A stretch of DNA of 64,000 bases from a virus (IMGVR_UViG_3300027804_000039:32001-96000); one strand, 5' to 3'. Positions 5,071 through 28,011 are shown, numbered from the stretch's first letter. Numbers and translations: made by a program. The notes: a model not told the origin generated them from the letters alone.

Positions 5071-5152
5071 TGTGTTAAATCTTTCAATGAGGGGATAAAA
5101 ACTGTATGTATCTATTATATGCATTTAGACACATACAGTCAACAACGTTTGG

Positions 5153-5620
5153 TTATACGTACCAAATTTCTTTGAAGCCTTCATCTTCGGTTGGTTCTTG
5201 CCAACCGTCGATCATTTGATCCACAACGTATTGTGGAATCACCTTACCAGGACGATTAGCCAATCTGCGATCCAATTCTGCTCTGTTAGGAGTGCGGAAT
5301 ACAATAGCAATATGTTCGTATCTTGGCAAAGTATTAAACTTGCGAGCTCGACTTGCAACGGTTGTGCTAGTCTGATCCCAAATCAAATCTAAGTTATTTG
5401 CTTCACAAATCTTTGCTTGGTTAACCATTAACTTAACAGCGATTGGCATATAGTCGTCAAATACTTCAGAATAGGTCTTACCTTGTTCTTTAGCATAAGC
5501 TTCTACAAACGAATCTGTACAAACTACAGGCATGTCCTTTGCCCAATCCTGGTTAGAAACCCAAGTGCTCTTGCCTGCGGCAGGAACTCCAATTAATTGA
5601 TAACATTTTGGCATTACCAA
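5153..5620 (-). CDS. P-loop kinase, AAA_33/polynucleotide-kinase-like
   Basis: GVPAAGKST P-loop, WDQT motif, R..R lid. Confidence 0.75.
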   Translation of the reverse strand: MVMPKCYQLIGVPAAGKSTWVSNQDWAKDMPVVCTDSFVEAYAKEQGKTYSEVFDDYMPIAVKLMVNQAKICEANNLDLIWDQTSTTVASRARKFNTLPRYEHIAIVFRTPNRAELDRRLANRPGKVIPQYVVDQMIDGWQEPTEDEGFKEIWYV

Positions 5621-5805
5621 GTCTCCACACCTGAAATATCTACTCTAACTTTAGCAGGACGATCGTTGATATCCATGTCCATAGTAAGTGTCAGGATACT
5701 ACCAATGCCGCTAGAATTATCTGATTTTAGTTCGTAAGATCTAGCATCGTCGAACTCGTTCATGACTGCTAGAATCTTCTCAACTTCTTGTTTAGTAATA
5801 TACAT
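5614..5805 (-). CDS. Small hypothetical protein
   Basis: 63-aa ORF containing SSGIG motif, seen in short phage proteins. Confidence 0.65.
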   Translation of the reverse strand: MYITKQEVEKILAVMNEFDDARSYELKSDNSSGIGSILTLTMDMDINDRPAKVRVDISGVETW

Positions 5806-5909
5806 TATGCTTTCCTATTCAAAATAAAACCCTTAGAATAGATTAAGAATGCCTTACCGCTTCTAATCATTTGTTTGAAATAATATTCACGATAAGACAT
5901 TCTTGTTCC

Positions 5910-6518
5910 TTACATTGTAGGACCGTTGCCGTTCCTAAAACCCACATTACCACCTTCTGCTTCAATTCGCTTTAACACATCTTCAAATAAGATAGGTGCA
6001 AAGTCTGGTGTTTGTTCTACGCAAACGCAATGGTAGCGTGGATCAATTTCGTCACCGTATAACACTTCGCCGGTCTTAGCATCAACTCCGCGGGCCTTAC
6101 GCACTCGATTTGCGTGTAAGTGTCCGTGAATGTTAACACCAAAACGTCCTAAGCTATCTGCGTGTACAGGAATATGACTTAAGATCATTCCGTTCATAAC
6201 ATGGTATGCCCGTAATTCTCTAAAGTATTGTCTGTACTCGTCATCTCTAAAGATGTCGTGGTTACCGCGAATTAAGACCTTGTCGCCGTTTAAGCGTCTT
6301 AAAGTTCCTAACGCCTTACGGTTAATAACAACGTCACCTAAGTGGTAGACTTTATCTGTGGGCTTGACTCTTTCGTTCCAAGCCTTAACCATGGCTTCGT
6401 CCATTTCGTCCGGGTCATCCCACGGACGTAACTTTGTAAAGCCATCGCTACGTGTGAAGCGGCAAACACCTGTGTGACCAAAGTGCGTGTCGCTGACTAA
6501 AAATACACTAGGCATCAT
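5910..6518 (-). CDS. Calcineurin-like metallophosphoesterase
   Basis: SDTHFGH, HLGD, RGNHD, HGHLH motifs. Confidence 0.9.
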   Translation of the reverse strand: MMPSVFLVSDTHFGHTGVCRFTRSDGFTKLRPWDDPDEMDEAMVKAWNERVKPTDKVYHLGDVVINRKALGTLRRLNGDKVLIRGNHDIFRDDEYRQYFRELRAYHVMNGMILSHIPVHADSLGRFGVNIHGHLHANRVRKARGVDAKTGEVLYGDEIDPRYHCVCVEQTPDFAPILFEDVLKRIEAEGGNVGFRNGNGPTM

Positions 6519-6529
6519 GCCCTCCTTTC

Positions 6530-6997
6530 TTAAAAATCATTTCTAAAAGCTCGCCAATCATCTATGTTTGGCGTTTCATCTGCATCATAAGTCCAACCCA
6601 ATGCTTTCATCATACGGTGCTTGACTAGTAAGTTAGGGCTACGAAATCTTTCTGTATCTTGAAATCCCATCATAACTCCTACTTCGCAGACAGCACCGCT
6701 ACGACAAATGCCAGCAAAGCAATGAACAATAACGTCCATGTGATTGTCTAGTGCATGTTGGAGCAAACGAACAAGCTCGTTGGCTTGCTCTTGGCTGCAC
6801 TTCATTGCTTCTTCTAACACTTCGTCTTTTTCTTCTACGTCAAGAAATTCAAAACGATGTACTTCTTTGAATTGATGCTTTGGTGTTGGGAACCAACTTG
6901 CTGGGTCAGCAATTTGGATCAACATTGAATTTTCTTTTACAGCAACATGGAATCCTTTTGGAATATCATCTGCTGCACAATTTTGAATCCACGGCAT
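6530..6997 (-). CDS. Cys-based (PTP/dual-specificity-like) phosphatase
   Basis: HCFAGICRS = CX5R active-site loop. Confidence 0.8.
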   Translation of the reverse strand: MPWIQNCAADDIPKGFHVAVKENSMLIQIADPASWFPTPKHQFKEVHRFEFLDVEEKDEVLEEAMKCSQEQANELVRLLQHALDNHMDVIVHCFAGICRSGAVCEVGVMMGFQDTERFRSPNLLVKHRMMKALGWTYDADETPNIDDWRAFRNDF

Positions 6998-7547
6998 TTT
7001 CTTTTTTCCTTTTTCTATATGTTTCGTTGTTACAATAAGGCCAAATTGCAGGAATTACCGCTTCTTCAATTTCACTTATCTGTTTGGCAGTTAAGTGGTC
7101 CAAACTCCAAACTAGAACTTCCAATGTATCTACATCAACTTTATGCTTTACAGGAAAGTCTAGCACTCCGGGTGCAACAAGTTTCTTACCAATCTTAACA
7201 TAGTGACTGGGAATTTCTGTTACACCTTCAATTATATACTTACAAACACCTTCTTTCCAACCTTCTGGGAACATCCATTTTGGTTCTACTTTTTCAACGG
7301 GTGTACTGTACAATGTGGCCAAATCAACATCCAATTTAGGACGATGTGTTTGGTGACGATTAATTACAGTATTTGTTGCCGCTTTACCAAAATAGAAATT
7401 CACGTCAGGATAGATGTAGTATAAACCACGATGGTTTCCTACTTCTGCTCTGTTAATTGCGCCTTCGGTAGTGCTATAGGGTTCAACCCATGCATGACCT
7501 AACTGCTCAAATACTTCACGAATTTTGGCTAAGTGTTTACTTTTCAT
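6966..7547 (-). CDS. Hypothetical protein, possibly GIY-YIG-like
   Basis: GLYYIY...FYFGKA...RH..H and a downstream Glu loosely fit GIY-YIG; own promoter TTGACA-17-TATAAT at 7554-7582. Confidence 0.4.
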   Translation of the reverse strand: MKSKHLAKIREVFEQLGHAWVEPYSTTEGAINRAEVGNHRGLYYIYPDVNFYFGKAATNTVINRHQTHRPKLDVDLATLYSTPVEKVEPKWMFPEGWKEGVCKYIIEGVTEIPSHYVKIGKKLVAPGVLDFPVKHKVDVDTLEVLVWSLDHLTAKQISEIEEAVIPAIWPYCNNETYRKRKKENAVDSKLCSR

Positions 7548-7590
7548 ACTATAATTATAGCACCAAATTTTGGTATTGTCAATCTAAAAA

Positions 7591-7612
7591 AATAGGGCCC
7601 AAAGGCCCTATT
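7591..7612 (-). terminator. Intrinsic terminator after the DUF2828 gene
   Basis: aatagggcc-caaa-ggccctatt hairpin with A-run on plus (U-tract on minus). Confidence 0.75.
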
Positions 7613-7642
7613 CAAAAGTGTTGTATTTCTACAACATAACTT

Positions 7643-9049
7643 TTAGATATCGTAGCGTGGGACCATTACAGTCTTAAGCATGATACCTTCTGGAGTGAAT
7701 TGATCCAAATCAGCTGAAAGCAAGGCCTTCATGATGCTTGGGCTAAATCCACTTACCAGTGCCGCACCACTCTTGTCTGCCTTTACAGGCACGTTACCAG
7801 AACTGTTTAGGTTCCAGAACACAATTTGTGGAACAGTATAACCTGCATCTGCGAACTTGCGTTCAATCATTTGCATTGCTGTGTCGTCGAAACGAGCACA
7901 TTGGTTAAACTGCATGTCGCTCAAGATAAGCAACATCTTTGGCATATCGCTTTCTGGGACGTTACCCTTGACAGCAACACTAAGGATCTTGTCCATAGCC
8001 TTGTGCAAGTCGGTACTCATTTCCCAGTTACTACGTGACATTTGGTCAACCTTTTGAACGATGTTACCCTTTAGAGTAACAAGTTCTGGCTTGCTTGAGA
8101 AGGTCAAGAATGTGTCCTTGAACGCACCCTTGTTCTTGTCTGCTAGGTACAAACCTAAACCAACTGCAACGTCCAAGCAACGAACAGACGAACCTGGAAC
8201 AGGTGTGGTCATAGAACCACTTACGTCGACTAGAGGTAGGATACTTGCGTCACCTACATAGTTAGGCAGAGCGTCCCATTGTGCGATGACATGGTCGGTT
8301 TCTGTCTTGTCCAGCTTGGTGTAGCTGTGTGCGATGCCCTTAAGGACATCGTGTGGGAAGATTGCATCGGCGTTAACCTTTACAGTCTTATCCCCTGCCA
8401 CCAACTTGGCCACATACTCTGCAAATGCAGGTGTGTGACGGTTGAATGCCTTCTTGTAGTTGCGAGCAGCTACAGAAGGAACATGTGAGAAGTTAATGTT
8501 GTCCCAGTCGTTGGCACACATTTGTGTTTCAACAACTGTAGTGAGAGCAACAAGACTCTTACGATATTGCTTAGGAGTCATTCCGAAGAATGCTCGTACT
8601 TCAGCCGCAATCTTACCCTTACGTGGAGTCCACTTAGCGGCAAGACCGTTCTTCGCACGAAGGGCATCGCCCAACATGGTATAAGCGGCTGACTTTAGGA
8701 CCGGACTTTGGAAGACAAAGATATCATCCCAGCGGCCTACTTCAGGCACCTTCTTTAGCAAAGCCAAAGCGGCGTCTGGATCGCGTTGTTCTAGATGAAC
8801 TAGAATATCGCGGAACAGTTGACGTTCACCTGCACCGCCACGGACATCACGTGCCCATTGTGCAATGCGAAGTGCTACATCAGAATTCTCGACATACGCG
8901 GCAGTAAATGCCTTAGTGATGTCCTTACCACGGCTTGCGCCGATGTTGTAAAACAGGTCAACTGTAGCCTTAGCTGTTGACTTACGTGCCTTCATACCGT
9001 TTGCGGTACGGGCTTCTTGGTTTGCTACTGCTGTTACAAATGCGTTCAT
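7643..9049 (-). CDS. DUF2828-family helical-repeat + vWA protein (Ro60/TROVE-like architecture)
   Basis: RDVRGGAGER, GRWDD, AKWTPR, C-terminal vWA with MIDAS DVSGSM and ILSDMQF, IVFWNL; Ro60 relationship is inferred. Confidence 0.8.
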   Translation of the reverse strand: MNAFVTAVANQEARTANGMKARKSTAKATVDLFYNIGASRGKDITKAFTAAYVENSDVALRIAQWARDVRGGAGERQLFRDILVHLEQRDPDAALALLKKVPEVGRWDDIFVFQSPVLKSAAYTMLGDALRAKNGLAAKWTPRKGKIAAEVRAFFGMTPKQYRKSLVALTTVVETQMCANDWDNINFSHVPSVAARNYKKAFNRHTPAFAEYVAKLVAGDKTVKVNADAIFPHDVLKGIAHSYTKLDKTETDHVIAQWDALPNYVGDASILPLVDVSGSMTTPVPGSSVRCLDVAVGLGLYLADKNKGAFKDTFLTFSSKPELVTLKGNIVQKVDQMSRSNWEMSTDLHKAMDKILSVAVKGNVPESDMPKMLLILSDMQFNQCARFDDTAMQMIERKFADAGYTVPQIVFWNLNSSGNVPVKADKSGAALVSGFSPSIMKALLSADLDQFTPEGIMLKTVMVPRYDI

Positions 9050-9128: not shown

Positions 9129-9380
9129 CAGGATGAGCGGAACGGTTTTTATTTTCTGCTTGACCCCATCCCCTGTATATCGGTTCAGTTCCTCAAGCCT
9201 ATTATGTAAGTTCTGTACATAAACATATAGGTCTTTCCCTAGTCGTTAGTTCCGTAAGCGTCTGTATTGCTACAGATAGGGCACCTTCAATGGATTTCTC
9301 CTCCAGTGTTCCAAGCCTTGCGAGCCACCGTCTACTACATTAAGTGCAGTCAGTATAGTTTAAATTGCTGAAATCATCCT
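9129..9380 (-). ncRNA. CAGCAA-stem RNA copy B (252 nt)
   Basis: 5' AGGAUGA-UUU-CAGCAA...UCAUCCU-G 3'; internal GCAA tetraloop hairpins. Confidence 0.75.
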
Positions 9381-9389
9381 AGAAATCAA

Positions 9390-9510
9390 CAGATTAGTTT
9401 TGTGCCCACTCTTTTACATGTTTGAGCTACATGTTTGATAGGCTGTGAAGTTATCTCTGCCCATCGTTTGATACGGGTATTAGCCGTGAATGATTTGCTG
9501 TAACTAATCT
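9390..9510 (-). ncRNA. CAGCAA-stem RNA copy C (121 nt)
   Basis: 5' AGAUUAG-UUA-CAGCAA...CUAAUCU-G 3'. Confidence 0.75.
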
Positions 9511-9529
9511 AAAATCTTACAATAGTTCT

Positions 9530-9558
9530 ATTGTATGTTCTTTCCCAGTGTGTGTCAA
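9530..9558 (-). promoter_or_regulatory. sigma70-type promoter driving RNA copies C-B-A and the DUF2828 gene
   Basis: TTGACA-17-TACAAT. Confidence 0.8.
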
Positions 9559-10493
9559 ATGCTTTTGGGCATCTCAGTCCAAAAATATTTAGATACTAAT
9601 TGTGCCATTTCGTTATCACCAAAAACGGACGGTGCTGTTAGTACTGTCTCTTTTGTTGCCAAATCCACAAGTTTAATATCCCCATGAATACGATTATCAA
9701 CAAACTCTATTTGATGTGTTTTGTTAATCAATCTATTATTCGTTTGTCCTTGTTTTAGATGAAATATCATAGATGCAAATTTATCTGAATTCCAACTAAA
9801 AAGTTCTTCGTCATCTCTAACAATGTATACCGTTTCACTTCTGTGAACAAAATCACAATGAAAATTGCCTAACGTTGTACTAGGGCTTGGTAGTTTCCAG
9901 TCAATAAGAAAACAAGGCAGTCTTAATAAATGCGATAAGTGTGCCATACCGCCTTCATAACTTATGATTGCCTTACAATGTTTGGCCAAAATCTCAATTT
10001 TAGTTTCAAGATCAAATCCTGAACGGTCTACAGTGATTACTTCATAGTCCATGGACTTTAGCCAACCAAAGATTCGTTGCCAGTATTCTAAATCTCTACG
10101 CTTACACCAAGGCCATTGTGTTATATCTGCGCCTTCGGGTGGAGTTTCATAAAACCCTGCAACGGCTATACACTTTTTCTCTGTTGTGTGATCAATTTTA
10201 ATGACCTGTCCGTTTACATAAACAAACATTGGCCTGTAGTAATTTGTAAATAATTTAAAAGGCCATCCAGTGTTAGGAAATTTTCCGTTGCCGGACGTTT
10301 GTTTTACTTCTAAATTACCTTTTGGAATTCTAAATATCTGAGAATATTTTTTTAGTTTATCAAAAGTCTCGTGGTCATTAGAAGTATACAAATTTACCTT
10401 GTCAGGAATATTTGCAAGAGCAGATAACAGGCAAAGATTGTCCCCTAGACCAACACTATGCTTGTTGTCTATGTGAACATTAATTTCTGGCAT
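9555..10493 (-). CDS. Putative glycosyltransferase (GT9/heptosyltransferase-like)
   Basis: GLGDNL start motif and ISYEGGMAHLSHLL resembling the GT9 DSG..HLA motif. Confidence 0.5.
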   Translation of the reverse strand: MPEINVHIDNKHSVGLGDNLCLLSALANIPDKVNLYTSNDHETFDKLKKYSQIFRIPKGNLEVKQTSGNGKFPNTGWPFKLFTNYYRPMFVYVNGQVIKIDHTTEKKCIAVAGFYETPPEGADITQWPWCKRRDLEYWQRIFGWLKSMDYEVITVDRSGFDLETKIEILAKHCKAIISYEGGMAHLSHLLRLPCFLIDWKLPSPSTTLGNFHCDFVHRSETVYIVRDDEELFSWNSDKFASMIFHLKQGQTNNRLINKTHQIEFVDNRIHGDIKLVDLATKETVLTAPSVFGDNEMAQLVSKYFWTEMPKSI

Positions 10494-10725
10494 TCTTTTT
10501 TTCTAAATATGTTTGACAGTCAATACACATTCTACAACCACTAATAGCCTGTTGTCTAGCCTTGGGAATCTCTTCCCCGCACTCTTCACAATGGCTTAGA
10601 CTAGGCCCTTTACCAATCTTTGCTCTAATGGCATCGACTGCGGCCGTGTTTCGCTGTAGTGCAAGAATCTGTGCAATTTCTGCTTCTTCTTCGTTATTAC
10701 TTTCAAAAGTCTCTAAATCAGACAT
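10480..10725 (-). CDS. TraR/DksA C4 zinc-finger protein
   Basis: CEECGEEIPKARQQAISGCRMCIDCQ. Confidence 0.9.
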   Translation of the reverse strand: MSDLETFESNNEEEAEIAQILALQRNTAAVDAIRAKIGKGPSLSHCEECGEEIPKARQQAISGCRMCIDCQTYLEKKNARN

Positions 10726-10740
10726 CTATGCTTCCTTGTT

Positions 10741-10815
10741 TGGTACCTGGACACGGTTTCGAACCGCGGACCTTCGCCGTGTAAAGGCGTTGCTCTACCC
10801 CTGAGCTATCCAGGC
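10741..10815 (-). tRNA. tRNA-Val(UAC)
   Basis: Cloverleaf, loop UU-UAC-AC, encoded CCA. Confidence 0.92.
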
Positions 10816-10816
10816 A

Positions 10817-11035
10817 TTATTTAATTTTTCGAATATACTCTTTTCCAATTTTGCCTTCTTCAAATTCTAGAAGTGCTGTAACTGGAGTATGTCTGTGTTC
10901 AAAACGTTCGCTTGAACTTTGTTGTCTTTTAATTTCTCTTGCACGGGCTGCGGCCATTAGTACTAGTTCAAAGCGATTGCCGCCTGCATTTTCTACGCAC
11001 AAGTCCATGTCAATATTTGCGCTACGTTCACTCAT
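10817..11035 (-). CDS. rpoZ: RNA polymerase omega subunit-like protein
   Basis: NRFELVLMAAARAREI...PVTALLEFEEGKI matches the omega core; promoter TTGACA-17-TACAAT at 11054-11082. Confidence 0.85.
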   Translation of the reverse strand: MSERSANIDMDLCVENAGGNRFELVLMAAARAREIKRQQSSSERFEHRHTPVTALLEFEEGKIGKEYIRKIK

Positions 11036-11086
11036 AGATAACTCCAAAAATAAATTGTAACATACTTATCTATAAATGTCAACATC

Positions 11087-11161
11087 TGGCCTCGCCAACA
11101 GGAATCGAACCTGTATTTAATTCTTAGGAGGAACTCGTTCTATCCATTGAACTATAGCGAG
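11087..11161 (-). tRNA. tRNA-Arg(CCU)
   Basis: Cloverleaf, loop CU-CCU-AA, CCA. Confidence 0.92.
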
Positions 11162-11166
11162 CTGTT

Positions 11167-11265
11167 TGGTGCCTCTGGCAGGACTCGAACCTGCACACTC
11201 AGGCTTATCTGGCCTGTGCTTTGGCGAGGTATAAGCTCGCTTCTTTACCATTAAGCTACAGAGGC
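11167..11265 (-). tRNA. tRNA-Ile(UAU) with 29-nt variable region
   Basis: GCGAG-CU-UAU-AC-CUCGC anticodon arm; long variable hairpin; 99 nt; CCA. Confidence 0.8.
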
Positions 11266-11270
11266 ATGAT

Positions 11271-11344
11271 TGGTTGCGGGTCCCGGAATCGAACCAGGAT
11301 CTAGAGCTTATGAGACTCTTGAGTTACCGTTTCTCTAACCCGCG
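11271..11344 (-). tRNA. tRNA-Met(CAU), initiator-like
   Basis: C1:A72 mismatch, CGCGGG start, loop CU-CAU-AA; lacks the three GC anticodon-stem pairs. Confidence 0.85.
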
Positions 11345-11352
11345 ATTGAAAT

Positions 11353-11429
<77 letters not shown>

Positions 11430-11436
11430 ATTAAAC

Positions 11437-11509
11437 TGGAGCGGGTAGTCGGATTCGAACCGGCTTCATTAGCTTGGAAGGCTAAGTCCTCTCCCAGGAG
11501 AATACCCGC
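11437..11509 (-). tRNA. tRNA-Gly(UCC)
   Basis: Loop CU-UCC-AA, U73, CCA. Confidence 0.9.
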
Positions 11510-11513
11510 ATAA

Positions 11514-11603
11514 TTTATGTAAACACACTCCGCACTTTTCGCAACGGTGGTGTGCAGTCCTTCCAACTTAGAACTATGTCTAAGCAAAGTGTGTTTACAT
11601 AAA
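11514..11603 (-). ncRNA. Unidentified structured RNA closed by a 16-bp perfect stem
   Basis: tttatgtaaacacact (11514-11529) / agtgtgtttacataaa (11588-11603). Confidence 0.45.
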
Positions 11604-11812
11604 GTGTCTAGCTACTCTCACCACAAGAGCCCTAAACTGGGTGGCCTACCCCGTCGACGTACTTTTCCATTTAGACAGGTTAGCGTCCCTGCCTTTGTGA
11701 TTTCTTAAGTCGCCCATGTAAGCGGGCCTTACGGTAGATCCAATGCACCGTGTCTTTTATGGTACAGACAATTGACCCCCGTTTACTAACGGCTACGGGA
11801 TGCCGGGTTATT

Positions 11813-11887
11813 TGGTGCTGGTTGTCGGATTTGAACTGACGACCTACTGCTTACAAGGCAGTTGCTCTACCCCTGAGCTAAACCAGC
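11813..11887 (-). tRNA. tRNA-Thr(UGU)
   Basis: Loop CU-UGU-AA, CCA. Confidence 0.92.
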
Positions 11888-11893
11888 GTAAAA

Positions 11894-12052
11894 TTATTTA
11901 ACTCTAGACTCAAGTGTTCTAATACGATTTAGAATTTTACCCTTGTCTTTAGCACGACTAGTTTTTTCTAACATATCTTTCAACTGCGTAATGCTCAATG
12001 GTCCTAAACGTGTTTTACCTGTTTTAGTTTTCATTGGATCTGCGTGTGACAT
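11894..12052 (-). CDS. Small basic hypothetical protein (52 aa, not in ORF track)
   Basis: MSHADPMKTKTGKTRLGPL...; SD GAGGA. Confidence 0.65.
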   Translation of the reverse strand: MSHADPMKTKTGKTRLGPLSITQLKDMLEKTSRAKDKGKILNRIRTLESRVK

Positions 12053-12069
12053 AATTTCCTCTTTTTGTT

Positions 12070-12145
12070 TGGTGGAGGTAAACGGGATCGAACCGATGAC
12101 CTTTAGCTTGCAAAGCTACTGCTCTCCCAGCTGAGCTATACCCCC
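12070..12145 (-). tRNA. tRNA-Ala(UGC)
   Basis: G3:U70, loop UU-UGC-AA. Confidence 0.93.
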
Positions 12146-12147
12146 AA

Positions 12148-12333
12148 TTAATCTGTTGTATCACCTTCTCCGTCCAAATCATAATATTCGTTTTTCATTA
12201 TAACTTGTTCGTCGAATTTCTCTGCGTCTGTCTTTTTATCTTTTTTAAAGATGTTATCGTAGTTATCACGATATGCATTAGTAACGCCTTTCGTTTGAAT
12301 TGCATCTCCTGTGATATCATTTTTTGCTACCAT
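12148..12333 (-). CDS. Small hypothetical protein (61 aa)
   Basis: MVAKNDITGD...YRDNYDNIF; SD GGAG. Confidence 0.7.
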   Translation of the reverse strand: MVAKNDITGDAIQTKGVTNAYRDNYDNIFKKDKKTDAEKFDEQVIMKNEYYDLDGEGDTTD

Positions 12334-12351
12334 CTTACTTCTCCGAATAAT

Positions 12352-12428
12352 TGGCTCCCCGAGCTGGGCTCGAACCAGCGACACCTTGATTAACAGTCAA
12401 GTGCTTCTACCAACTGAGCTATCAGGGA
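12352..12428 (-). tRNA. tRNA-Asn(GUU)
   Basis: Loop CU-GUU-AA, G73. Confidence 0.9.
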
Positions 12429-12439
12429 ACAGAAATTAT

Positions 12440-12628
12440 TTATTCACTGGTAGGAGTACCAGTTGTAAATCGTTCTTTCTTACTTGTCTTGGGAACAATG
12501 CTTGCAGAATGTTCTGCTTCGATGAACATTCTCTTCCAACCATTTCTATATTCATTAGTTCCACCCATTAGAGCAATCATGCGTTTTGCAGTCTTACTCA
12601 GTCTAAATGATGCAGTAGTCTTTGCCAT
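12440..12628 (-). CDS. Small basic hypothetical protein
   Basis: MAKTTASFRLSKTAKR..., SD AAGGA. Confidence 0.7.
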   Translation of the reverse strand: MAKTTASFRLSKTAKRMIALMGGTNEYRNGWKRMFIEAEHSASIVPKTSKKERFTTGTPTSE

Positions 12629-12645
12629 ACTTTTTCCTTTTAAAT

Positions 12646-12740
12646 TGGCAGTGAGTAAGGGATTCGAACCCTTGATCCCCGTTTTTGCAGGAATGCCTTC
12701 TTAGCAGGAAGGTGCCTTCGACCAGCTCGGCCAACTCACT
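12646..12740 (-). tRNA. tRNA-Ser(GCU)
   Basis: Long variable arm, loop CU-GCU-AA. Confidence 0.92.
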
Positions 12741-12747
12741 ATTATTC

Positions 12748-12832
12748 TGGTACGACTGGCCGGAATCGAACCGGCACGCCTTTCGGCGAGAGATTTTAAG
12801 TCTCTTGTGTCTACCTATTTCACCACAGTCGC
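12748..12832 (-). tRNA. tRNA-Leu(UAA)
   Basis: Long variable arm with GAAA loop, loop CU-UAA-AA. Confidence 0.93.
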
Positions 12833-12840
12833 ATTACAAA

Positions 12841-13041
12841 TTAAATTCTACGCTTCTTCCAGTCGTATGTAAAGCCGTTTGGCAATACACCTTCTACAAT
12901 TTCGTCAGCACCAAAGATGCCAACTAGCTCAAACTCTTTGCTCTTAATAGTTACATACTCATTCATTACTTTGGCTGTTTTCATAGCCTCGTCTAGAGTC
13001 ATAACATTAAAAGTTATATCTTTTCCTTTTACTTCATACAT
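12841..13041 (-). CDS. Small hypothetical protein
   Basis: MYEVKGKD...GVLPNGFTYDWKKRRI. Confidence 0.65.
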   Translation of the reverse strand: MYEVKGKDITFNVMTLDEAMKTAKVMNEYVTIKSKEFELVGIFGADEIVEGVLPNGFTYDWKKRRI

Positions 13042-13092
13042 ATTGTCGATTTCCTTTTCTTTTCCACACATCGCGACAACGACATTATTGAT

Positions 13093-13166
13093 TGGCATCC
13101 CGCCAGGGACTCGAACCCCGACCAACAGTTTTGGAGACTGGTATGCTGCCATTACACTAGCGAGAT
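13093..13166 (-). tRNA. tRNA-Trp(CCA)
   Basis: Loop CU-CCA-AA. Confidence 0.9.
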
Positions 13167-13173
13167 ATAAACT

Positions 13174-13250
13174 TGGCGACCTGTACCGGGCTCGAACCGG
13201 TGACCCCCGCCGTGACAGGGCGGTGCGCTGACCAACTGCGCTAACAGGCC
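13174..13250 (-). tRNA. tRNA-Asp(GUC)
   Basis: Loop CU-GUC-AC, G73. Confidence 0.93.
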
Positions 13251-13255
13251 AATAT

Positions 13256-13347
13256 TGGTGGAAGCGGTGAGATTCGAACTCACGGACCCTGTTAAGGATC
13301 GTCGGTTTTCAAGACCGGTGCAATAAACCAGACTCTGCCACACTTCC
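13256..13347 (-). tRNA. tRNA-Ser(UGA)
   Basis: Long variable arm, loop CU-UGA-AA. Confidence 0.92.
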
Positions 13348-13352
13348 ATTAT

Positions 13353-13435
13353 TGGTGCCCCAGGACGGACTCGAACCGTCACGCTCGCGCACTGGCTTCT
13401 AAGACCAGCGTGTCTACCAATTTCACCACCGGGGC
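13353..13435 (-). tRNA. tRNA-Leu(UAG)
   Basis: Loop CU-UAG-AA, variable arm. Confidence 0.92.
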
Positions 13436-13442
13436 ATAATTT

Positions 13443-13585
13443 CCATTTAGTAATAGCACAGTTTACTATTCTCACTCTACCCAATGTTGCTCTGCTACGC
13501 AGAAACAATTACTAGTATCATGGGCCCCGATTTGAACAAGGTTAGCCGTGTACATTGGCCTACGAGCTGTGCTATTACTAAATGG
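13443..13585 (-). ncRNA. Unidentified 143-nt RNA closed by a 19-bp perfect stem
   Basis: ccatttagtaatagcacag (13443-13461) / ctgtgctattactaaatgg (13567-13585); 5' end overlaps the CCA of tRNA-Glu. Confidence 0.5.
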
Positions 13586-13658
13586 TACTCGATAGGGGAA
13601 TCGAACCCCTCTTCCCACCGTGAAAGGGTGGTGTCCTAGACCGATAGACGAATCGAGC
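13583..13658 (-). tRNA. tRNA-Glu(UUC)
   Basis: Loop CU-UUC-AC. Confidence 0.92.
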
Positions 13659-13719
13659 AAATTAACTTTTGAATTTTTAACGAACGATTTTAGTCAGTTG
13701 TTTATCTAACTAAGTCTCT

Positions 13720-13748
13720 ATTATATAGCCTCTGCACACTCTTGTCAA
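13720..13748 (-). promoter_or_regulatory. Internal sigma70 promoter in tRNA array
   Basis: TTGACA-17-TATAAT. Confidence 0.85.
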
Positions 13749-13768
13749 TAATAAAGTGGCATTTTGGT

Positions 13769-13843
13769 TGGCCGGGCTTGCAGGAATCGAACCCACACCG
13801 CTTGTTTCGAAGACAAGCATGATATCCATTTCACCAAAGCCCG
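13769..13843 (-). tRNA. tRNA-Arg(UCG)
   Basis: Loop CU-UCG-AA. Confidence 0.88.
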
Positions 13844-13855
13844 AACGTATATTTA

Positions 13856-13930
13856 TGGCACCGCGAGTTGGACTCGAACCAACATCTTACGCTTTAGAAG
13901 AGCGTTGCCTATCCTTTAGACTATCGCGGT
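13856..13930 (-). tRNA. tRNA-Arg(UCU)
   Basis: Loop CU-UCU-AA. Confidence 0.92.
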
Positions 13931-13931
13931 A

Positions 13932-14008
13932 TGGTGCTCTTGAAGAGATTCGAACTCTTACTGTCAGCGACCTCAACGCTGTGCGTCTACCAATTGCGCC
14001 ACAAGAGC
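13932..14008 (-). tRNA. tRNA-Leu(GAG) with short variable loop
   Basis: CAGCG-UU-GAG-GU-CGCUG; Leu-type D arm; only ~5 nt variable region. Confidence 0.8.
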
Positions 14009-14009
14009 A

Positions 14010-14083
14010 TGGTGCTCTAGCCAAGAATCGAACTTGAAATACATTCTTACCAAGAATGCGTTATGCCATTTAACTACAAGAGC
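14010..14083 (-). tRNA. tRNA-Thr(GGU)
   Basis: Loop UU-GGU-AA. Confidence 0.9.
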
Positions 14084-14091
14084 AAATAAAT

Positions 14092-14193
14092 CGGGATGAG
14101 GTGCCTAAGACCGGGACTCGAACCCACGGCACACCCCCAAGCGGGCCGGCCTCGCGAGAATGGAGCGAGTAAGTTGTTTGCTGTAATCATCCC
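14092..14193 (-). ncRNA. CAGCAA-stem RNA copy D with T-loop-like hairpin
   Basis: GGGAUGA-UUA-CAGCAA...GGG-UUCGAGU-CCC...UCAUCCC-G. Confidence 0.75.
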
Positions 14194-14198
14194 TAAAC

Positions 14199-14318
14199 TG
14201 GTGGAGCCCCGTGGATTCGAACCACGATCACGTCCTTATGCATGGAATTTGTAAATTGCTGACTGTATCCTTGTCAGGATAACCTTTTTTACGTATGCTA
14301 CCATTACACCAGAGCTCC
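14199..14318 (-). ncRNA. tRNA-shaped RNA with the CAGCAA module in place of the anticodon loop (copy E)
   Basis: Acceptor GGAGCUC/GGGCUCC-ACCA, normal D and T arms; anticodon region holds UUAUCCU-GACA-AGGAUAC-AGU-CAGCAA. Confidence 0.8.
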
Positions 14319-14327
14319 AAAATAAAA

Positions 14328-14443
14328 CAGGATAGAATTTAACATAGTGCTACCGTTACACCAAACCTTTCGGCTGCGGAGTCGAACCGCTCCCTTACTT
14401 TTCAAGAGTAGTAGTTGTTATTAAATTTTGCTGTTACTATCCT
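14328..14443 (-). ncRNA. CAGCAA-stem RNA copy F, circularly permuted tRNA mimic
   Basis: AGGAUAG-UAA-CAGCAA; T arm GCGG-UUCGACU-CCGC; acceptor AGCC-GAAA-GGUU; D arm GUGUAACGGUAGCAC; CUAUCCU-G. Confidence 0.8.
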
Positions 14444-14448
14444 TAAAC

Positions 14449-14530
14449 TGGTACCCCTCCCCGGACTCGAACCGGGAGAAACTAACACTCCTTTTGAGAG
14501 AGCTGCCTTTACCAATTTGGCCAGAGGGGC
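14449..14530 (-). tRNA. tRNA-Leu(CAA)
   Basis: Loop CU-CAA-AA. Confidence 0.88.
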
Positions 14531-14540
14531 ATAAACTTGT

Positions 14541-14615
14541 TGGTAGTTCCTACTGGGATCGAACCAGTGACCCACACCATGTCAAGGTGTTGCGCTACCG
14601 CTACGCTAAGGAACT
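14541..14615 (-). tRNA. tRNA-Val(GAC)
   Basis: Loop UU-GAC-AU. Confidence 0.9.
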
Positions 14616-14793
14616 ATTGTTTGAACTTTTCTTTGACACGTTCTAATGCCTCTTTACGCATTAAATAAGAACGCTGTTCATTTATTTTATGAACATAGAT
14701 GTATTCGACACCGTCGATTATCTCAACTCTACGAGTGTCTTCACATATAAATTTATCGTTGTTCATGCGATTTTTAAATGTTACAGGTTTCAT
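14614..14793 (-). CDS. Small hypothetical protein (59 aa, not in ORF track)
   Basis: MKPVTFKNRMNNDKFICED...; SD AAGGAGAG. Confidence 0.65.
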   Translation of the reverse strand: MKPVTFKNRMNNDKFICEDTRRVEIIDGVEYIYVHKINEQRSYLMRKEALERVKEKFKQ

Positions 14794-14813
14794 AACACTC
14801 TCCTTGAATAAAA

Positions 14814-14927
14814 CGGGATACTATCGTTTTGACGAATGCTCTACCTAATGAGCTAAACTGGCATGAAGCCAACTGTTGGACTCGAACCAACTACCTATCG
14901 TTTGGATAGATTTGCTGTGAGTATCCC
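14814..14927 (-). ncRNA. CAGCAA-stem RNA copy G, circularly permuted tRNA mimic
   Basis: GGGAUAC-UCA-CAGCAA; T arm GUUGG-UUCGAGU-CCAAC; acceptor AGUUGGC-UUCAU-GCCAGUU; D arm GCUCAUUAGGUAGAGC; GUAUCCC-G. Confidence 0.82.
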
Positions 14928-14933
14928 TAAACT

Positions 14934-15008
14934 TGGAGCAGGATATCGGGTTCGAACCGATGACATTCTCGTTGGCAACGAGACATTCTACCACTGAATT
15001 AATCCTGC
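14934..15008 (-). tRNA. tRNA-Gly(GCC)
   Basis: Loop UU-GCC-AA, U73. Confidence 0.92.
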
Positions 15009-15009
15009 A

Positions 15010-15259
15010 TTGTCTAAAGAAAAAGAGCTCACAAAGTTTTGGTTTGCCGAAGCTGAGGCGACCTGATGTTACCGCACCACTTTATTTGTCTCGCCTAACA
15101 TGGAGCGATTCAATCTGTCAACGGACTCGCGCAGTACCACTATCCGCACATGTTCAGATCAGTTGTGATTTTTATAAAACCTTTAAGCCAGCCCTTCCGG
15201 AGCCATCTATCGTCCTTGCGGAACAACTATATCGCCTTGAGCACTTTTACTTTAGACAA
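15010..15259 (-). ncRNA. Unidentified ~250-nt structured RNA
   Basis: 10-bp closing stem ttgtctaaag/ctttagacaa; GCAA, GGAA and UUCG tetraloop hairpins on minus strand. Confidence 0.55.
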
Positions 15260-15319
15260 TTTATTTATAAATGCCAGGTTGTTCACCGCACAACCATGGC
15301 AAAGCGGGGGTCTGTTCTT

Positions 15320-15395
15320 TGGGGTGCTCTATGAGGATCGAACTCATACTCTCAAGGTCACAACATGATGTGCAGTCCACTACACTAAGAGCACC
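15320..15395 (-). tRNA. tRNA-His(GUG)
   Basis: G-1:C73, loop UU-GUG-AC, U-U mismatch in anticodon stem. Confidence 0.88.
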
Positions 15396-15402
15396 ATAGA
15401 AT

Positions 15403-15478
15403 TGGTAGTAACGGTCGGACTCGAACCGACGATAAACACCGTATGAAGGTGGTGCATTAGCCACTATGCTACGTTACC
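15403..15478 (-). tRNA. tRNA(CAU), elongator Met or Ile2
   Basis: Loop UU-CAU-AC; identity not resolvable by eye. Confidence 0.85.
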
Positions 15479-15483
15479 ATAAA

Positions 15484-15700
15484 GGATGACAACTAGATTC
15501 TTCCACCACATACATTGGAAGCATTATCCGCAAATTATGCCGGCTGCGGTTATGATAGTCAAGCTCTTTTACAGATAACTTGTTTTCTCTTAGGGTACAT
15601 AAGTAATAGTGCTACTTGTTTGCTACTAGGATAATTAGTCCCAACTCACAAGAATTTCGAGGCTCTTGCTTTCACACATCTCACACCTAATTGTCATTCG
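15484..15700 (-). ncRNA. Unidentified ~215-nt structured RNA
   Basis: Closing stem GAAUGACAA/UUGUCAUCC, several internal hairpins, no ORF. Confidence 0.4.
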
Positions 15701-15703
15701 TTA

Positions 15704-15778
15704 TGGTAGGGGCACAGAGAATCGAACTCTGATTAATAGGTTAAAAGCCTACTACTTTAGCCGTTAAGTTATACCCCC
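15704..15778 (-). tRNA. tRNA-Lys(UUU)
   Basis: Loop CU-UUU-AA. Confidence 0.92.
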
Positions 15779-15781
15779 ATA

Positions 15782-15857
15782 TGGTCCCTCCAGACGGATT
15801 CGAACCGTCACCTCATCGGGTAAGAGCCGAGTATGCTACCAGTAACACCTCGAAGGG
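15782..15857 (-). tRNA. tRNA-Lys(CUU)
   Basis: Loop CU-CUU-AC. Confidence 0.88.
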
Positions 15858-15917
15858 ATGATCCGTAATCATTTGATTTTACGTGCCATCCGGACCATAC
15901 GGGGATCGCGGATGACA

Positions 15918-15941
15918 CTAACGTTTACCTGAACGTTTCAT
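15918..15941 (-). other. Minigene MKRSGKR-UAG followed by a 10-bp hairpin
   Basis: AAGGAG-6nt-AUG; hairpin GUGUCAUCCG/CGGAUGGCAC; promoter TTGACA-17-TATAAT at 15963-15991. Confidence 0.45.
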
Positions 15942-16059
15942 GTCATTCTCCTTAAAAAACAAATTATATATTCATTTCAAATTCTTGTCAATGAACATAA
16001 TCAGTACTACGAGTAAAAGTAAAACAGCCACCGCCCCATGATTGTTCTCCTTAAAAAAA

Positions 16060-16122
16060 CAGGATGTATTTTTACGGTTTAGATTAAAAGTCTAATGTAT
16101 AAATTTTTGCTGTTAACATCCT
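16060..16122 (-). ncRNA. CAGCAA-stem RNA copy H carrying a Lys(UUU)-like anticodon stem-loop
   Basis: AGGAUGU-UAA-CAGCAA...UUAGA-CUUUUAA-UCUAA...ACAUCCU-G. Confidence 0.78.
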
Positions 16123-16128
16123 TAAACT

Positions 16129-16204
16129 TGGTGCCGCCTCGTGGGATCGAACCACGTTCCGACGCTCTTCAGGCGCCTGCTATGACCACATCAGCTAAAG
16201 CGGC
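16129..16204 (-). tRNA. tRNA-Phe(GAA)
   Basis: Loop CU-GAA-GA. Confidence 0.9.
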
Positions 16205-16365
16205 AAATAGATTGGGTGCCTAACTATCCTCCTGGGAAGACTCGCTAGATTGTCTCGAATAGTCAAGTTTAACATACCGGCTTCAGTCATACTGTAGTGT
16301 CACCACAGTTAACCCCACTGTGGCTAGACTGGCAGGGACTCTAAACTATCGTCTATCCCAAAACT

Positions 16366-16440
16366 TGGTGCTCCGTGACGGACTCGAACCGCCATCGCCG
16401 GACTACAAAACCGGAATTCTAGCCTTTGAAATAACAGAGC
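16366..16440 (-). tRNA. Atypical tRNA, probably Thr(UGU) second copy
   Basis: CCGGU-UU-UGU-AG-UCCGG with U31:U39 mismatch. Confidence 0.65.
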
Positions 16441-16445
16441 AAAAT

Positions 16446-16523
16446 TGGTCTCCATGGTAGGATTCGAACCTACAGCCTCCTGACTCCAGATCAGGCCGTC
16501 TACCAGATTGACATTACACAGAG
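16446..16523 (-). tRNA. tRNA-Pro(UGG) second copy, non-canonical loop
   Basis: CCUGA-UC-UGG-AG-UCAGG (C33, A37). Confidence 0.8.
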
Positions 16524-16529
16524 ATAACT

Positions 16530-16604
16530 TGGTGGAGACCGAGGGAATCGAACCCTTCTAGACATCTTCCTTGCAAGGGAAGACCGTAGCCCACTACTGC
16601 CCCC
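16530..16604 (-). tRNA. Atypical tRNA-Ala(UGC) with miniature D arm
   Basis: G3:U70, D arm GUAG-UGGG-CUAC, loop CU-UGC-AA. Confidence 0.7.
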
Positions 16605-16614
16605 AAATTCTTTT

Positions 16615-16692
16615 TGGCACCCCAGGAAGGACTCGAACCTCCGACTCCCACGTTCGTAGCGTAGTACTCTTATTCCTCTGAGTTACTGGGGT
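16615..16692 (-). tRNA. tRNA-Arg(ACG)
   Basis: Loop CU-ACG-AA. Confidence 0.92.
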
Positions 16693-16698
16693 ATAAAT

Positions 16699-16776
16699 TG
16701 GAGTAGGGAGTCGGATTCGAACCGACGGCTTTAGAGTTTTGCAGACTCTTGCATTGGGCCTCTCTGCCATCCCTAC
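16699..16776 (-). tRNA. tRNA-Cys(GCA)
   Basis: Loop CU-GCA-AA, U73. Confidence 0.92.
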
Positions 16777-16783
16777 ATAATAT

Positions 16784-16858
16784 TGGCGCCGTAGACGAGA
16801 ATCGAACTCGCCTTAGTCGGATAGACAATCCGTTGCCCTCCCAGAGAACTACTACGGC
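16784..16858 (-). tRNA. tRNA-Asp(GUC) second copy, U37
   Basis: Loop UU-GUC-UA, G73. Confidence 0.78.
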
Positions 16859-16862
16859 ATGT

Positions 16863-16936
16863 TGGTATCGCGTACGGGGATCGAACCCGCCTGATCAGGT
16901 TGAAAGCCTGAGGACCTCCCAGAAGTCTAACGCGAT
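16863..16936 (-). tRNA. tRNA-Glu(UUC) second copy
   Basis: Loop CU-UUC-AA. Confidence 0.88.
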
Positions 16937-16945
16937 ATAAAAAAA

Positions 16946-17005
16946 CAGGATACATTTTCTTTTTTCACCAATTGAAAGTTGAATAAAGTTTGCTGTGAGT
17001 ATCCT
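16946..17005 (-). ncRNA. CAGCAA-stem RNA copy I carrying a Glu(UUC)-like anticodon stem-loop
   Basis: AGGAUAC-UCA-CAGCAA...UCAA-CUUUCAA-UUGG...GUAUCCU-G. Confidence 0.78.
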
Positions 17006-17011
17006 TAAACT

Positions 17012-17085
17012 TGGCAGGGGCATTAGGGATCGAACCTAAACTAACAGAGTCAAAGTCTGTTGTGCTACCATTACACAATGCCCCA
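17012..17085 (-). tRNA. tRNA-Gln(UUG)
   Basis: Loop CU-UUG-AC, U1-A72. Confidence 0.92.
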
Positions 17086-17091
17086 ACAAAT

Positions 17092-17169
17092 TGGCTGTGC
17101 GTCTAGGAATCGAACCCAGCTCATTCTTCGTTAACAGCGAAGCGCCTACACCTTGCTTGCTCACGCACA
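17092..17169 (-). tRNA. tRNA-Asn(GUU) second copy
   Basis: Loop CU-GUU-AA. Confidence 0.88.
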
Positions 17170-17176
17170 ATAAATT

Positions 17177-17250
17177 TGGTTCCCAGAACAAGAATCGAAC
17201 TTGTAATGACCGGTTATCAGCCGATTGTTATACCATTTAACTATCCGGGA
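17177..17250 (-). tRNA. tRNA-Ile(GAU)
   Basis: Loop CU-GAU-AA. Confidence 0.92.
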
Positions 17251-18010: not shown

Positions 18011-18039
18011 ATTGTAACGTCTTTCAACGCTACTGTCAA
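18011..18039 (-). promoter_or_regulatory. sigma70 promoter for leader and tRNA array (second tandem promoter at 18111-18139)
   Basis: TTGACA-17-TACAAT, present twice. Confidence 0.85.
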
Positions 18040-18246
18040 CAACTTTTTGAAATATTTTTTGTTGTATTTTTACAACAGTTGCTACTTCACTAACTTGCTG
18101 ACTGAACCTTATTGTATAGTTATTTAGTCTCTGTGTCAACCTCTATTTGCATTTTTGAGCAAAAAAGATTCACCAACTATCTAACTAGTCTCGATTGTAT
18201 AGTATATATGCCTATGTGTCAAGACCGGTACGGAAATGTTGTTTTT

Positions 18247-26840: not shown

Positions 26841-26916
26841 TGGTGCGCTGAGTGGGAATCGAACCCACGCATCTGGAGTTTTAGAGGCTCCCGCTGTTCC
26901 ATTTAGCTATCAGCGC
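26841..26916 (-). tRNA. Amber-suppressor-type tRNA (CUA anticodon)
   Basis: GCGCUGA/UCAGCGC-ACCA; GGAGC-CU-CUA-AA-ACUCC; own promoter TTGACG-17-TATAAT at 26925-26953. Confidence 0.82.
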
Positions 26917-27546: not shown

Positions 27547-27574
27547 AAAAAAATAGCACCCGAAGGTGCTATTT
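27547..27574 (-). terminator. Terminator after tmRNA
   Basis: aaatagcacc-cgaa-ggtgctattt plus U-tract. Confidence 0.8.
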
Positions 27575-27925
27575 GTTATTTTGGGTGACAAGGTATAACT
27601 ACCCCGGTTCCGCTGTTTCTTAGGCAGCTAAAGCAAACTTGCTGTCGTTGACAGCTACGTCTACTTCGTAGAACTTAAATGCTGATTTTGCATTTATAAG
27701 TTTTGCTTGATTTACGGTCATCGCCTACCGTGTTGCCGTCTCTACTATCTACCCCTGTCGAAACCATGGCAGGCCCATCATAAAATGACTAGGAAAACTA
27801 TAGCAACTGCGATAAATCCAACTAGTGTACTATATCCAGTGTCCATACTAATCTCCTTATGGTGGACCTGGCGGGAGTCGAACCCGCGTCCAGAAGTCCT
27901 TCGCTTTGAAGGGATTACAACAATT
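27575..27925 (-). ncRNA. ssrA: Two-piece (circularly permuted) tmRNA
   Basis: Acceptor piece ends GCGGGUUCGACUCCCGC-CAGGUCC-ACCA (27860); coding piece starts GGGCCUG (27776), giving G3:U70; tag ORF 27620-27691 AKSAFKFYEVDVAVNDSKFALAA. Confidence 0.92.
27778..27846 (-). CDS. 22-aa hydrophobic peptide inside the tmRNA intervening segment
   Basis: UAAGGAG SD; MDTGYSTLVGFIAVAIVFLVIL. Confidence 0.6.
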   Translation of the reverse strand: MDTGYSTLVGFIAVAIVFLVIL

Positions 27926-27927
27926 CT

Positions 27928-28011
27928 TTACTTACTATTGCGTCTTCTAGTAGCTTTAGCTCTAGAAGCTGCTTTCGTACGTGCCGCACGGGCTCTTACT
28001 AATCTTCCCAT
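27928..28011 (-). CDS. 27-aa Arg/Ala-rich basic peptide
   Basis: MGRLVRARAARTKAASRAKATRRRNSK. Confidence 0.5.
   Translation of the reverse strand: MGRLVRARAARTKAASRAKATRRRNSK

Follow-up and report, generated by a model that had tools for sequence, protein, structure and literature searches.

In the 64,000-nucleotide stretch of giant-phage DNA analysed here (the window), we found on the minus strand, at 14199-14318, a 120-nt RNA in which a tRNA cloverleaf carries an extra arm. The arm is 45 nt long and sits between nucleotides 28 and 29 of the anticodon stem. The structure is real and conserved, beyond what chance would produce, as judged from a CM match of 123 bits and from covariation. The YrlA-like RNAs encoded beside it are closed by a stem-plus-CAGCAA module, and alignment with their genes identifies the extra arm as this module in circularly permuted form. 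We lean, with modest confidence, towards a functional non-coding RNA gene, whose product would be processed like a tRNA, be held by its extra arm by a Ro-like protein, and serve as a tether or decoy.

The cloverleaf can be followed part by part, with residue i of the RNA lying at window coordinate 14319-i. The acceptor 5' strand GGAGCUC (residues 1-7, 14312-14318) forms seven of seven pairs with 14203-14209, and after UG it is followed by the D arm GUGU-AAUGGUA-GCAU (residues 10-24, 14295-14309), a 4-bp stem with 96.7% of alignment cells paired, in which G18 and G19 are present in the loop, as are U8 and A14 in the body. An A follows the D arm, and then CG, the C26, G27 region that opens the anticodon stem. 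These two nucleotides (tRNA positions 27-28, 14292-14293) pair across the insert with C87 and G88 (14231-14232) as helix 3 of the alignment. Between the two sides lie the inserted arm (residues 28-72, 14247-14291) and an inner anticodon hairpin, UCC-AUGCAUAA-GGA (residues 73-86, 14233-14246), with 95.7% of cells paired. The variable loop is UGAU, of 4 nt, and the T arm CGUGG-UUCGAAU-CCACG (14210-14226) has five pairs, with 99% of cells paired and compensatory changes in two pairs. The acceptor 3' strand GGGCUCC, the discriminator A and an encoded CCA (14199-14209) are read directly from the sequence. The earlier note had described the GGAGCUC acceptor with its ACCA end, the D arm and the T arm, and between the cloverleaf arms the string UUAUCCU-GACA-AGGAUAC-AGU-CAGCAA; all of these are present on the minus strand.

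ARAGORN and the Rfam tRNA model made no call on the intact 14199-14318 interval, no Rfam family matched it at E up to 5, and for YrlA in particular (gathering score 69 bits) no match overlapped it at E up to 5. Folded singly, the sequence has an MFE structure other than the cloverleaf and a z of only -1.27, which makes this fold uninformative. A blastn search against 50,697 phage records gave one match, an unannotated stretch of Synechococcus phage BUCT-ZZ01, where two RNAs of the candidate type are adjacent; their tRNA bodies differ, their arm is identical. Loci in IMG/VR were collected by protein, by module pattern and by D-arm/linker pattern, and the homologue set consists of 23 distinct sequences of the closed type, from IMG/VR phage contigs and from the cultured BUCT-ZZ01. 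CCA-ended variants from five contigs (L143, L156, L137, L141, L098) were left out of the set because no clear cloverleaf fold was obtained for them.

In the alignment of the 23 sequences, the cloverleaf-plus-arm model has 98.2% of 621 cells paired, and compensatory changes were found in 14 of 27 pairs, with every helix represented and the acceptor stem contributing six of its seven pairs. This is the covariation that the earlier note had proposed looking for among homologues. None of 500 shuffled controls reached the observed pairing and compensation values, pairing fell to 40-56% when partner columns were slid, and RNAalifold, unaided, recovered the acceptor, D, module, anticodon and T helices. 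As read from the alignment, the tertiary 15-48 pair is A15-U48 in the window lineage and G15-C48 in both BUCT-ZZ01 copies. The encoded 3' end is CCA in 21 of the 23 homologues and CAA in the other two.

The BUCT-type module pattern had no match in IMG/VR, a generic scan for a closed hairpin, GCAA and a T loop returned mostly ordinary tRNAs and no further closed families, and a strict scan for tRNAs with inserts found only the candidate's family and a tRNA(UAU) with a long variable arm. We considered T4 rnaC/rnaD as members of the same family and rejected them: rnaC resembles a tRNA in its 3' domain, but it is without the CAGCAA module and therefore falls outside the family.

Several other RNAs share parts with the candidate. 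The jumbo-phage contigs L185 (1140-1269), L201 and L189 (659-783) have the candidate's D arm and ACGUA linker, in tRNA bodies that carry different inserts. In L185 the insert is the hairpin GUCGC-UUCG-GCGAC; the L189 body has no CCA and bears at the anticodon position the CAGCAA module in native order as a closed stem-loop (CACGGAA...CAGCAA...UUUCCGUG). Near distant DUF2828 genes we observed four RNAs (L143 ~7549-7658, L156 ~7569-7671, L137 ~1051-1159, L141 ~5429-5549), the first two directly downstream of the gene, in which GUUUUAGG...CAGCA(A/U) is followed by a T arm, by 7 nt resembling an acceptor 3' strand, and by NCCA. Neither a 5' acceptor strand nor a D arm can be made out convincingly in these four, which may represent a half-tRNA layout.

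The anticodon arm is kept. The earlier note had the anticodon loop replaced by the module, and this does not hold: a local anticodon-type hairpin, UCC-AUGCAUAA-GGA, persists, stacked on C26-G88 and G27-C87, and the anticodon arm of the window copy is a 5-bp stem with the 8-nt loop AUGCAUAA. A third anticodon-stem pair drawn at first, a U-A pair across the insert (columns 29:91), was discarded, being broken in 7 of 17 homologues, whereas the local alternative at columns 78:91 is paired in 17 of 17. RNAalifold finds the inner anticodon hairpin de novo. When the insert was deleted in silico from the first 17 homologues collected, ARAGORN called a 74-75-nt tRNA in every case (17/17); the window copy becomes a 75-nt tRNA, to which ARAGORN assigns the four-base anticodon gcat. 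Because pair 78:91 is kept, pair 29:91 is broken in part of the homologues and the insert-deleted tRNAs are recognised, the RNA amounts to an entire tRNA plus an arm. Across the insert, the outer anticodon pairs covary among the 23 homologues (CG in 15, UA in 7 and AU in 1 for one pair; GC in 11 and UA in 11 for the other), and the linker from CAGCAA to the local anticodon hairpin measures 7-10 nt. We also considered, and rejected, a recent copy of a tRNA from the array: the best global score against 38 tRNAs was only 21, with a query splice that is approximate by a few bases, a shift too small to alter the outcome.

Thirteen of the 23 homologues have 7-nt anticodon loops (AUGUCAA, AUUCUAA, AUUGUAA, AUCAUAA, CUGUUAA), and an 8-nt loop, AU(G/U)CAUAA, is found in the window copy and in L173, L186 and L188; the L018 group also has 8 nt. 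For the L166 group the alignment columns give an 8-nt loop, and ARAGORN reads UUCCA-CUGCUAA-UGGAA, with a loop of 7 nt. The loops read [A/C]U...AA except in the L018 group (ACUAUGAA); U33 and A37-A38 are retained, and the members of a sub-lineage have the same loop. An acceptor GGGGC...GCUCCACCA with G3-U70 and A73 occurs in six relatives of the closed type (L179, L018, L180, L167, L170, L198); this is the alanine identity set, which tmRNA uses too. Of the BUCT-ZZ01 copies, BUCT_B combines G73 with GUU and BUCT_A combines A73 with CAU. The window copy has an A3-U70 acceptor pair, which together with its 8-nt anticodon loop points to no particular synthetase.

These loops and identity-like elements, together with the complete cloverleaf, the encoded CCA and the acceptance by ARAGORN of all 17 insert-deleted forms, leave room for a working, chargeable decoding tRNA that accommodates its extra arm as class II tRNAs do their long variable arm, and that in the window copy might read four bases. 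We nevertheless consider this unlikely. The arm emerges from the anticodon stem on its 5' strand, where tRNA-ribosome structures show close contact with the ribosome, and the long variable arm required by SerRS is absent from the GCU 'Ser' copies. The 8-nt loop of the window copy and three relatives and the CAA encoded by two copies also speak against decoding, ordinary tRNAs for these anticodons are already present in the array, and the arm is the same module that occurs in RNAs without a free acceptor end.

Within the insert, UAAAAAAGG lies between the outer CG and the module hairpin UUAUCCU-GACA-AGGAUAC (14265-14282, minus strand), which has six pairs with 97.8% of cells paired. The AGU bulge and CAGCAA motif follow at 14256-14264 (pattern match at 14256-14270), and UUUACAAAU fills the stretch from there to the anticodon hairpin. 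Across the family, the insert is 42-48 nt long and the arm is a GNNA-capped hairpin of 6-7 bp, followed by AGU-CAGCAA in the window copy; the closed-form loop reads G-N-N-A in all copies except two that have 5-nt loops. The CAGCAA after the module 5' strand is the same motif as in all open copies, and diverged lineages replace it by CAGCAU, CAGCAG, CAGCAC or UCUGCAA. In BUCT-ZZ01 the arm common to both closed-type RNAs is CAUUCU-GUAA-AGAAUG-AAU-UCUGCAA, and two pairs of the hairpin change on both sides (UA to CG and CG to UA).

Three open copies lie close by on the same strand. Copy F (14325-14446) is directly upstream, and the candidate begins right after its U-rich tail. Copy G (14811-14930) matches Rfam YrlA at 27.3 bits, a weak match (E 2.7e-4 for that stretch, below the 69-bit gathering threshold), and its parts come in the YrlA order: stem, T, acceptor-like, D. 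Copy E (14088-14196) comes directly downstream, the CCA of the candidate preceding its start by one base; it combines the module with a T arm and lacks a D arm, and its alignment to the candidate is not significant (z 1.5). When the candidate was cut in its GACA loop and its acceptor ends were joined, the permuted sequence aligned end to end with F (z 8.4) and G (z 7.2), whereas the unpermuted candidate gave background values (z 0.1 and 0.9). The description of the candidate as a mirror of F and G, made in the earlier note, is thus borne out, and these alignments support its being a circular permutation of the two YrlA-like copies. Moreover, the open copies have an A before the module 5' strand and a G after its 3' strand, which correspond to the last and first bases of the closed G-N-N-A loop, and the D arm and linker GGUGUAAUGGUAGCACACGUA are common to open and closed forms in many contigs. 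An anticodon-type hairpin follows CAGCAA in the open copies too (UACU-CUUGAAA-AGUA in F, CUAUC-CAAAC-GAUAG in G), so that a single secondary-structure plan underlies both layouts, and only the choice of the open helix distinguishes them.

Another alternative is that the candidate is an inert chimera or pseudogene that arose by recombination, either of tandem Y-like RNA copies or of a tRNA with a Y-like RNA. Exactly this order of parts would result if open copies were duplicated in tandem and then trimmed, and the long-loop form in L098 resembles such a junction. However, the arrangement persists in 23 distinct sequences with partner proteins down to 49% identity, its helices all carry compensatory changes, and its tetraloop retains the GNNA form, and we regard an inert product as very improbable.

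The presumed partner of this conserved RNA is a DUF2828/DUF7788 protein of 468 aa encoded at 7643-9049 on the minus strand, assigned by Pfam and by PHROG 850 ('RNA-binding protein'). Its AlphaFold2 model (pLDDT 81, pTM 0.77) was matched by Foldseek over its full length to Ro60/TROVE structures (E 3e-11 to 1.5e-6, TM 0.51-0.62, and TM 0.42-0.43 for 2nvo and 9nen). The best matches were 9KOP and 9L5Y of Thermus phage phiLo (E 3e-11, TM 0.6), others were Xenopus Ro60 (1YVP, 2I91) and D. radiodurans Rsr (2NVO), and the matches ranked after Ro60/TROVE covered only the vWA domain. The protein is thus predicted to have the Ro60 fold, a HEAT-repeat ring with a vWA domain and its MIDAS site, whose residues D275, S277 and S279 are invariant. 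A TROVE domain was not found by sequence, since Pfam yields only DUF2828 and DUF7788 and a profile search against PDB gave TROVE chains at a non-significant E of 0.42. The Ro-like protein that had been proposed for this locus is therefore plausible at the level of the predicted full-length Ro60/TROVE+vWA fold. Some depositors have labelled DUF2828 homologues 'RNA-binding protein' or 'Ro sixty-related'.

The candidate lies 5.1 kb from the DUF2828 gene in the same orientation, and in BUCT-ZZ01 the two closed-type RNAs are within 0.45 kb downstream of a DUF2828 gene whose product is 49% identical to that of the window. The leader-plus-module motif was found on the gene strand at 118 of 160 DUF2828 loci (64 of 80 close and 54 of 80 distant ones) and on the opposite strand at 9 of 160 (5 close, 4 distant), and loci retrieved by RNA pattern alone often contain a DUF2828 gene. 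Module and protein diverge in step over four lineages only, with CAGCAA at 85-93% protein identity, CAGCAU at 70%, CAGCAG at 64-66% and UCUGCAA at 49%. What these genomic patterns indicate is linkage of RNA and protein genes, not binding.

After the Ro-like gene, at 3994-7547 on the minus strand, we observed genes for a DSP-type phosphatase, a metallophosphoesterase, an AAA_33/polynucleotide-kinase-like protein and an AAA ATPase, and in Stenotrophomonas phage DLP_6 a kinase and a metallophosphoesterase likewise follow the DUF2828 homologue. By its gene content this cassette looks like an RNA end-healing cassette. Searches for the RNA ligases RtcB, Rnl2 and Rnl1 found none in the 191-kb record, which is ~50% complete, the search for Rnl1 being one without a working control.

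A kinase and phosphoesterase at this position would suit an intervening sequence, that is, a 45-nt insert that is excised while the halves are rejoined, giving an ordinary tRNA and a free hairpin RNA, and removal of the insert does restore a canonical tRNA of 74-75 nt in all 17 homologues examined. On the other hand, the insert lies within a stem, at 28/29 and not at 37/38, and a known mechanism for 28/29 is lacking. There is no conserved bulge-helix-bulge, a short junction helix being absent in L172 and L168, and no group I intron or ribozyme family matched at E up to 5. The absence of the three ligases from the record, read with its incompleteness and with the Rnl1 control in mind, points the same way, and the insert is conserved as a structured module common to free-standing RNAs. 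Splicing of this kind seems to us quite unlikely.

The source record is a 191-kb IMG/VR virus record, of which the window is a part, and the candidate is embedded in a minus-strand array of 37 tRNA genes (window 10741-17250). Exact GGAT-N5-CAGCAA sites number seven in the whole record, all on the minus strand and all within window 9365-17004; the reversed control pattern had no site in the record. A consensus sigma-70 promoter, TTGACA-17-TATAAT, was found by pattern matching at 15963-15991 (minus strand, 12/12 hexamer matches), and the next perfect sigma-70-type promoter, also a pattern match, is at 13748-13720. No minus-strand terminator was found between 15991-15963 and 13748-13720, which makes co-transcription of the candidate with the tRNAs likely, and judging from these signals the promoter at 15963-15991 is likely to drive the transcript that contains it.

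Some features of the array are recorded here in their own right. Several perfect or near-perfect TTGACA-17-TATAAT promoters (15963-15991, 13720-13748 and 18011-18139, minus strand) split it into blocks, and a 59-codon ORF without a family match (14623-14802, minus strand) lies inside it, between copy G and tRNA-Val. A 99-nt tRNA at 11167-11265 (minus strand), with the anticodon loop CUUAUAC (UAU) and a long variable arm, scores 59.7 bits with the Rfam tRNA model, yet was missed by ARAGORN. It is conserved in L019, L040, L084, L134 and L170, with the variable-arm loop CCAGAUNAG, and its 92-nt counterpart in Stenotrophomonas phage DLP_6 is annotated tRNA-Ile-TAT. Elsewhere on the minus strand of the window are a tRNA with a CUA anticodon (26841-26916), which would be expected to read amber codons, and a two-piece (permuted) tmRNA (27550-27973) with the tag AKSAFKFYEVDVAVNDSKFALAA.

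Among known RNAs the closest comparison is with YrlA (Rfam RF02553). Both combine tRNA-like D and T arms and an acceptor-type stem with a stem module that binds protein in YrlA and is presumed to do so in the candidate, and both have conserved loop nucleotides (in the candidate, the GG of the D loop AAUGGUA, the T loop UUCGAAU, U8 and A14). YrlA is encoded next to a Ro60 orthologue, the candidate 5.1 kb from a gene whose product is predicted to have a Ro60 fold; the candidate is collinear with the YrlA-like copies of the window once it is permuted. They differ in that YrlA runs stem, T arm, closed acceptor-like stem, D arm, stem, with its ends paired in the Ro-binding stem, whereas the candidate runs acceptor, D, module, anticodon arm, T, acceptor and ends at the acceptor stem, with the module as a closed internal hairpin and a full anticodon arm kept. 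YrlA has the motif GNCGAAN0-1G in the 5' strand of its Ro-binding stem where the candidate has AGU-CAGCAA, and the presumed partner of the candidate is a DUF2828 protein whose sequence matches no TROVE model.

YrlA RNAs mimic tRNA, and that of M. smegmatis is cut by RNase P and receives CCA (PMC4201824). Like the candidate, this Y RNA has a tRNA-like domain with a 7-bp acceptor stem and a CCA end, but the end comes from a cut in the acceptor loop and the module ends are still open (PMC4201824), whereas the candidate has a permuted gene, an encoded CCA and a closed module. Deinococcus radiodurans Yrn1 shares the order D arm, anticodon-like arm, T arm (PMC4201824); its Ro-binding stem takes the acceptor position, so that it has neither a free acceptor nor a CCA, unlike the candidate, whose acceptor is free and whose module branches off the anticodon stem. 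In Thermus phage phiLo, a phage Ro60-fold protein adjoins genes for the Y-like RNAs Yrl1 and Yrl2 (PMC12135203; PDB 9KOP, 9L5Y), and this Ro60 is the best structural match to the predicted model of the window protein. The phiLo Yrls have a canonical 5'-3' stem with a CGAA bulge, and no CCA-ended tRNA cloverleaf is described for them. The phage Ro60 binds the phage Yrls and host PNPase (PMC12135203), and some jumbo phages have TROVE proteins paired with tRNA-like RNAs for RNA repair (PMC7824862).

Outside the Y RNAs, tmRNA likewise couples a large additional domain to a tRNA-like part that comprises acceptor, T domain and CCA, and permutation of its gene is known; it differs in having a tag reading frame and no anticodon arm, where the candidate has an anticodon arm and no tag frame. 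tRNA models have a standard 7-nt anticodon loop, unlike the 8 nt of the window copy. tRNA introns have a group I core or a BHB motif and the canonical 37/38 site, none of which is found in the candidate. Our survey of the Y RNA literature, which was not exhaustive, found no description of a cloverleaf that ends in CCA and bears such a module as an internal arm.

Y RNAs tether Ro60 to effectors, and YrlA is modified by tRNA enzymes. With this background, the way in which the candidate might work can be sketched. It would be transcribed within the phage tRNA array, and RNase P and tRNA 3' processing would make its ends, the same cuts freeing copies F and E. The Ro60-fold DUF2828-vWA protein would then bind the extra arm, as suggested by linkage, by the shared module and by the YrlA/Ro60 precedent. 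At the last and most speculative step, the particle might display the tRNA-shaped part, with its free CCA end and exposed anticodon loop, which might act not as a decoder but as a tether or decoy for a tRNA-binding factor, for example a host anticodon nuclease or an enzyme of tRNA repair or processing. Several points weigh against this reading as a whole: the single-sequence fold, the CAGCAA motif in place of the canonical GNCGAA, the missing TROVE match by sequence, the 5 kb that separate the candidate from the protein gene, the loops and identity-like elements that would suit a chargeable or decoding tRNA, and the small number of lineages (four) behind the module-protein co-variation.

Within one operon, a tRNA shape and the same module have been combined twice, through opposite circular permutations. 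Since the candidate keeps all tRNA parts (CCA end, anticodon arm, tertiary pairs) and its presumed Ro-binding module is separate, the tRNA part and the handle can be mutated independently. BUCT-ZZ01, which carries two closed-form copies, infects S. elongatus PCC 7942; this host is genetically tractable, so that tests of binding, charging, processing and fitness are feasible. Furthermore, DUF2828 (PHROG 850) homologues are present in 709 cultured phage records, so that the importance of their RNA partners extends far past this contig. The candidate also bears on the question of why Y RNAs of bacteria and phages resemble tRNA. We put forward only tentatively, as a possibility of low probability, that the candidate represents a third and previously undescribed Ro/Y-RNA layout: a Y RNA that is a processable tRNA, with a free CCA, a selectable loop and perhaps the capacity to be charged, in view of the G3-U70 and A73 of six relatives, held on an internal handle by a Ro-like vWA protein. 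If so, the particle could gain access to synthetase, EF-Tu and ribosome as tRNAs do, or it could be a lure for anticodon nucleases, and phage lineages would exchange loop sequences to follow a changing target.
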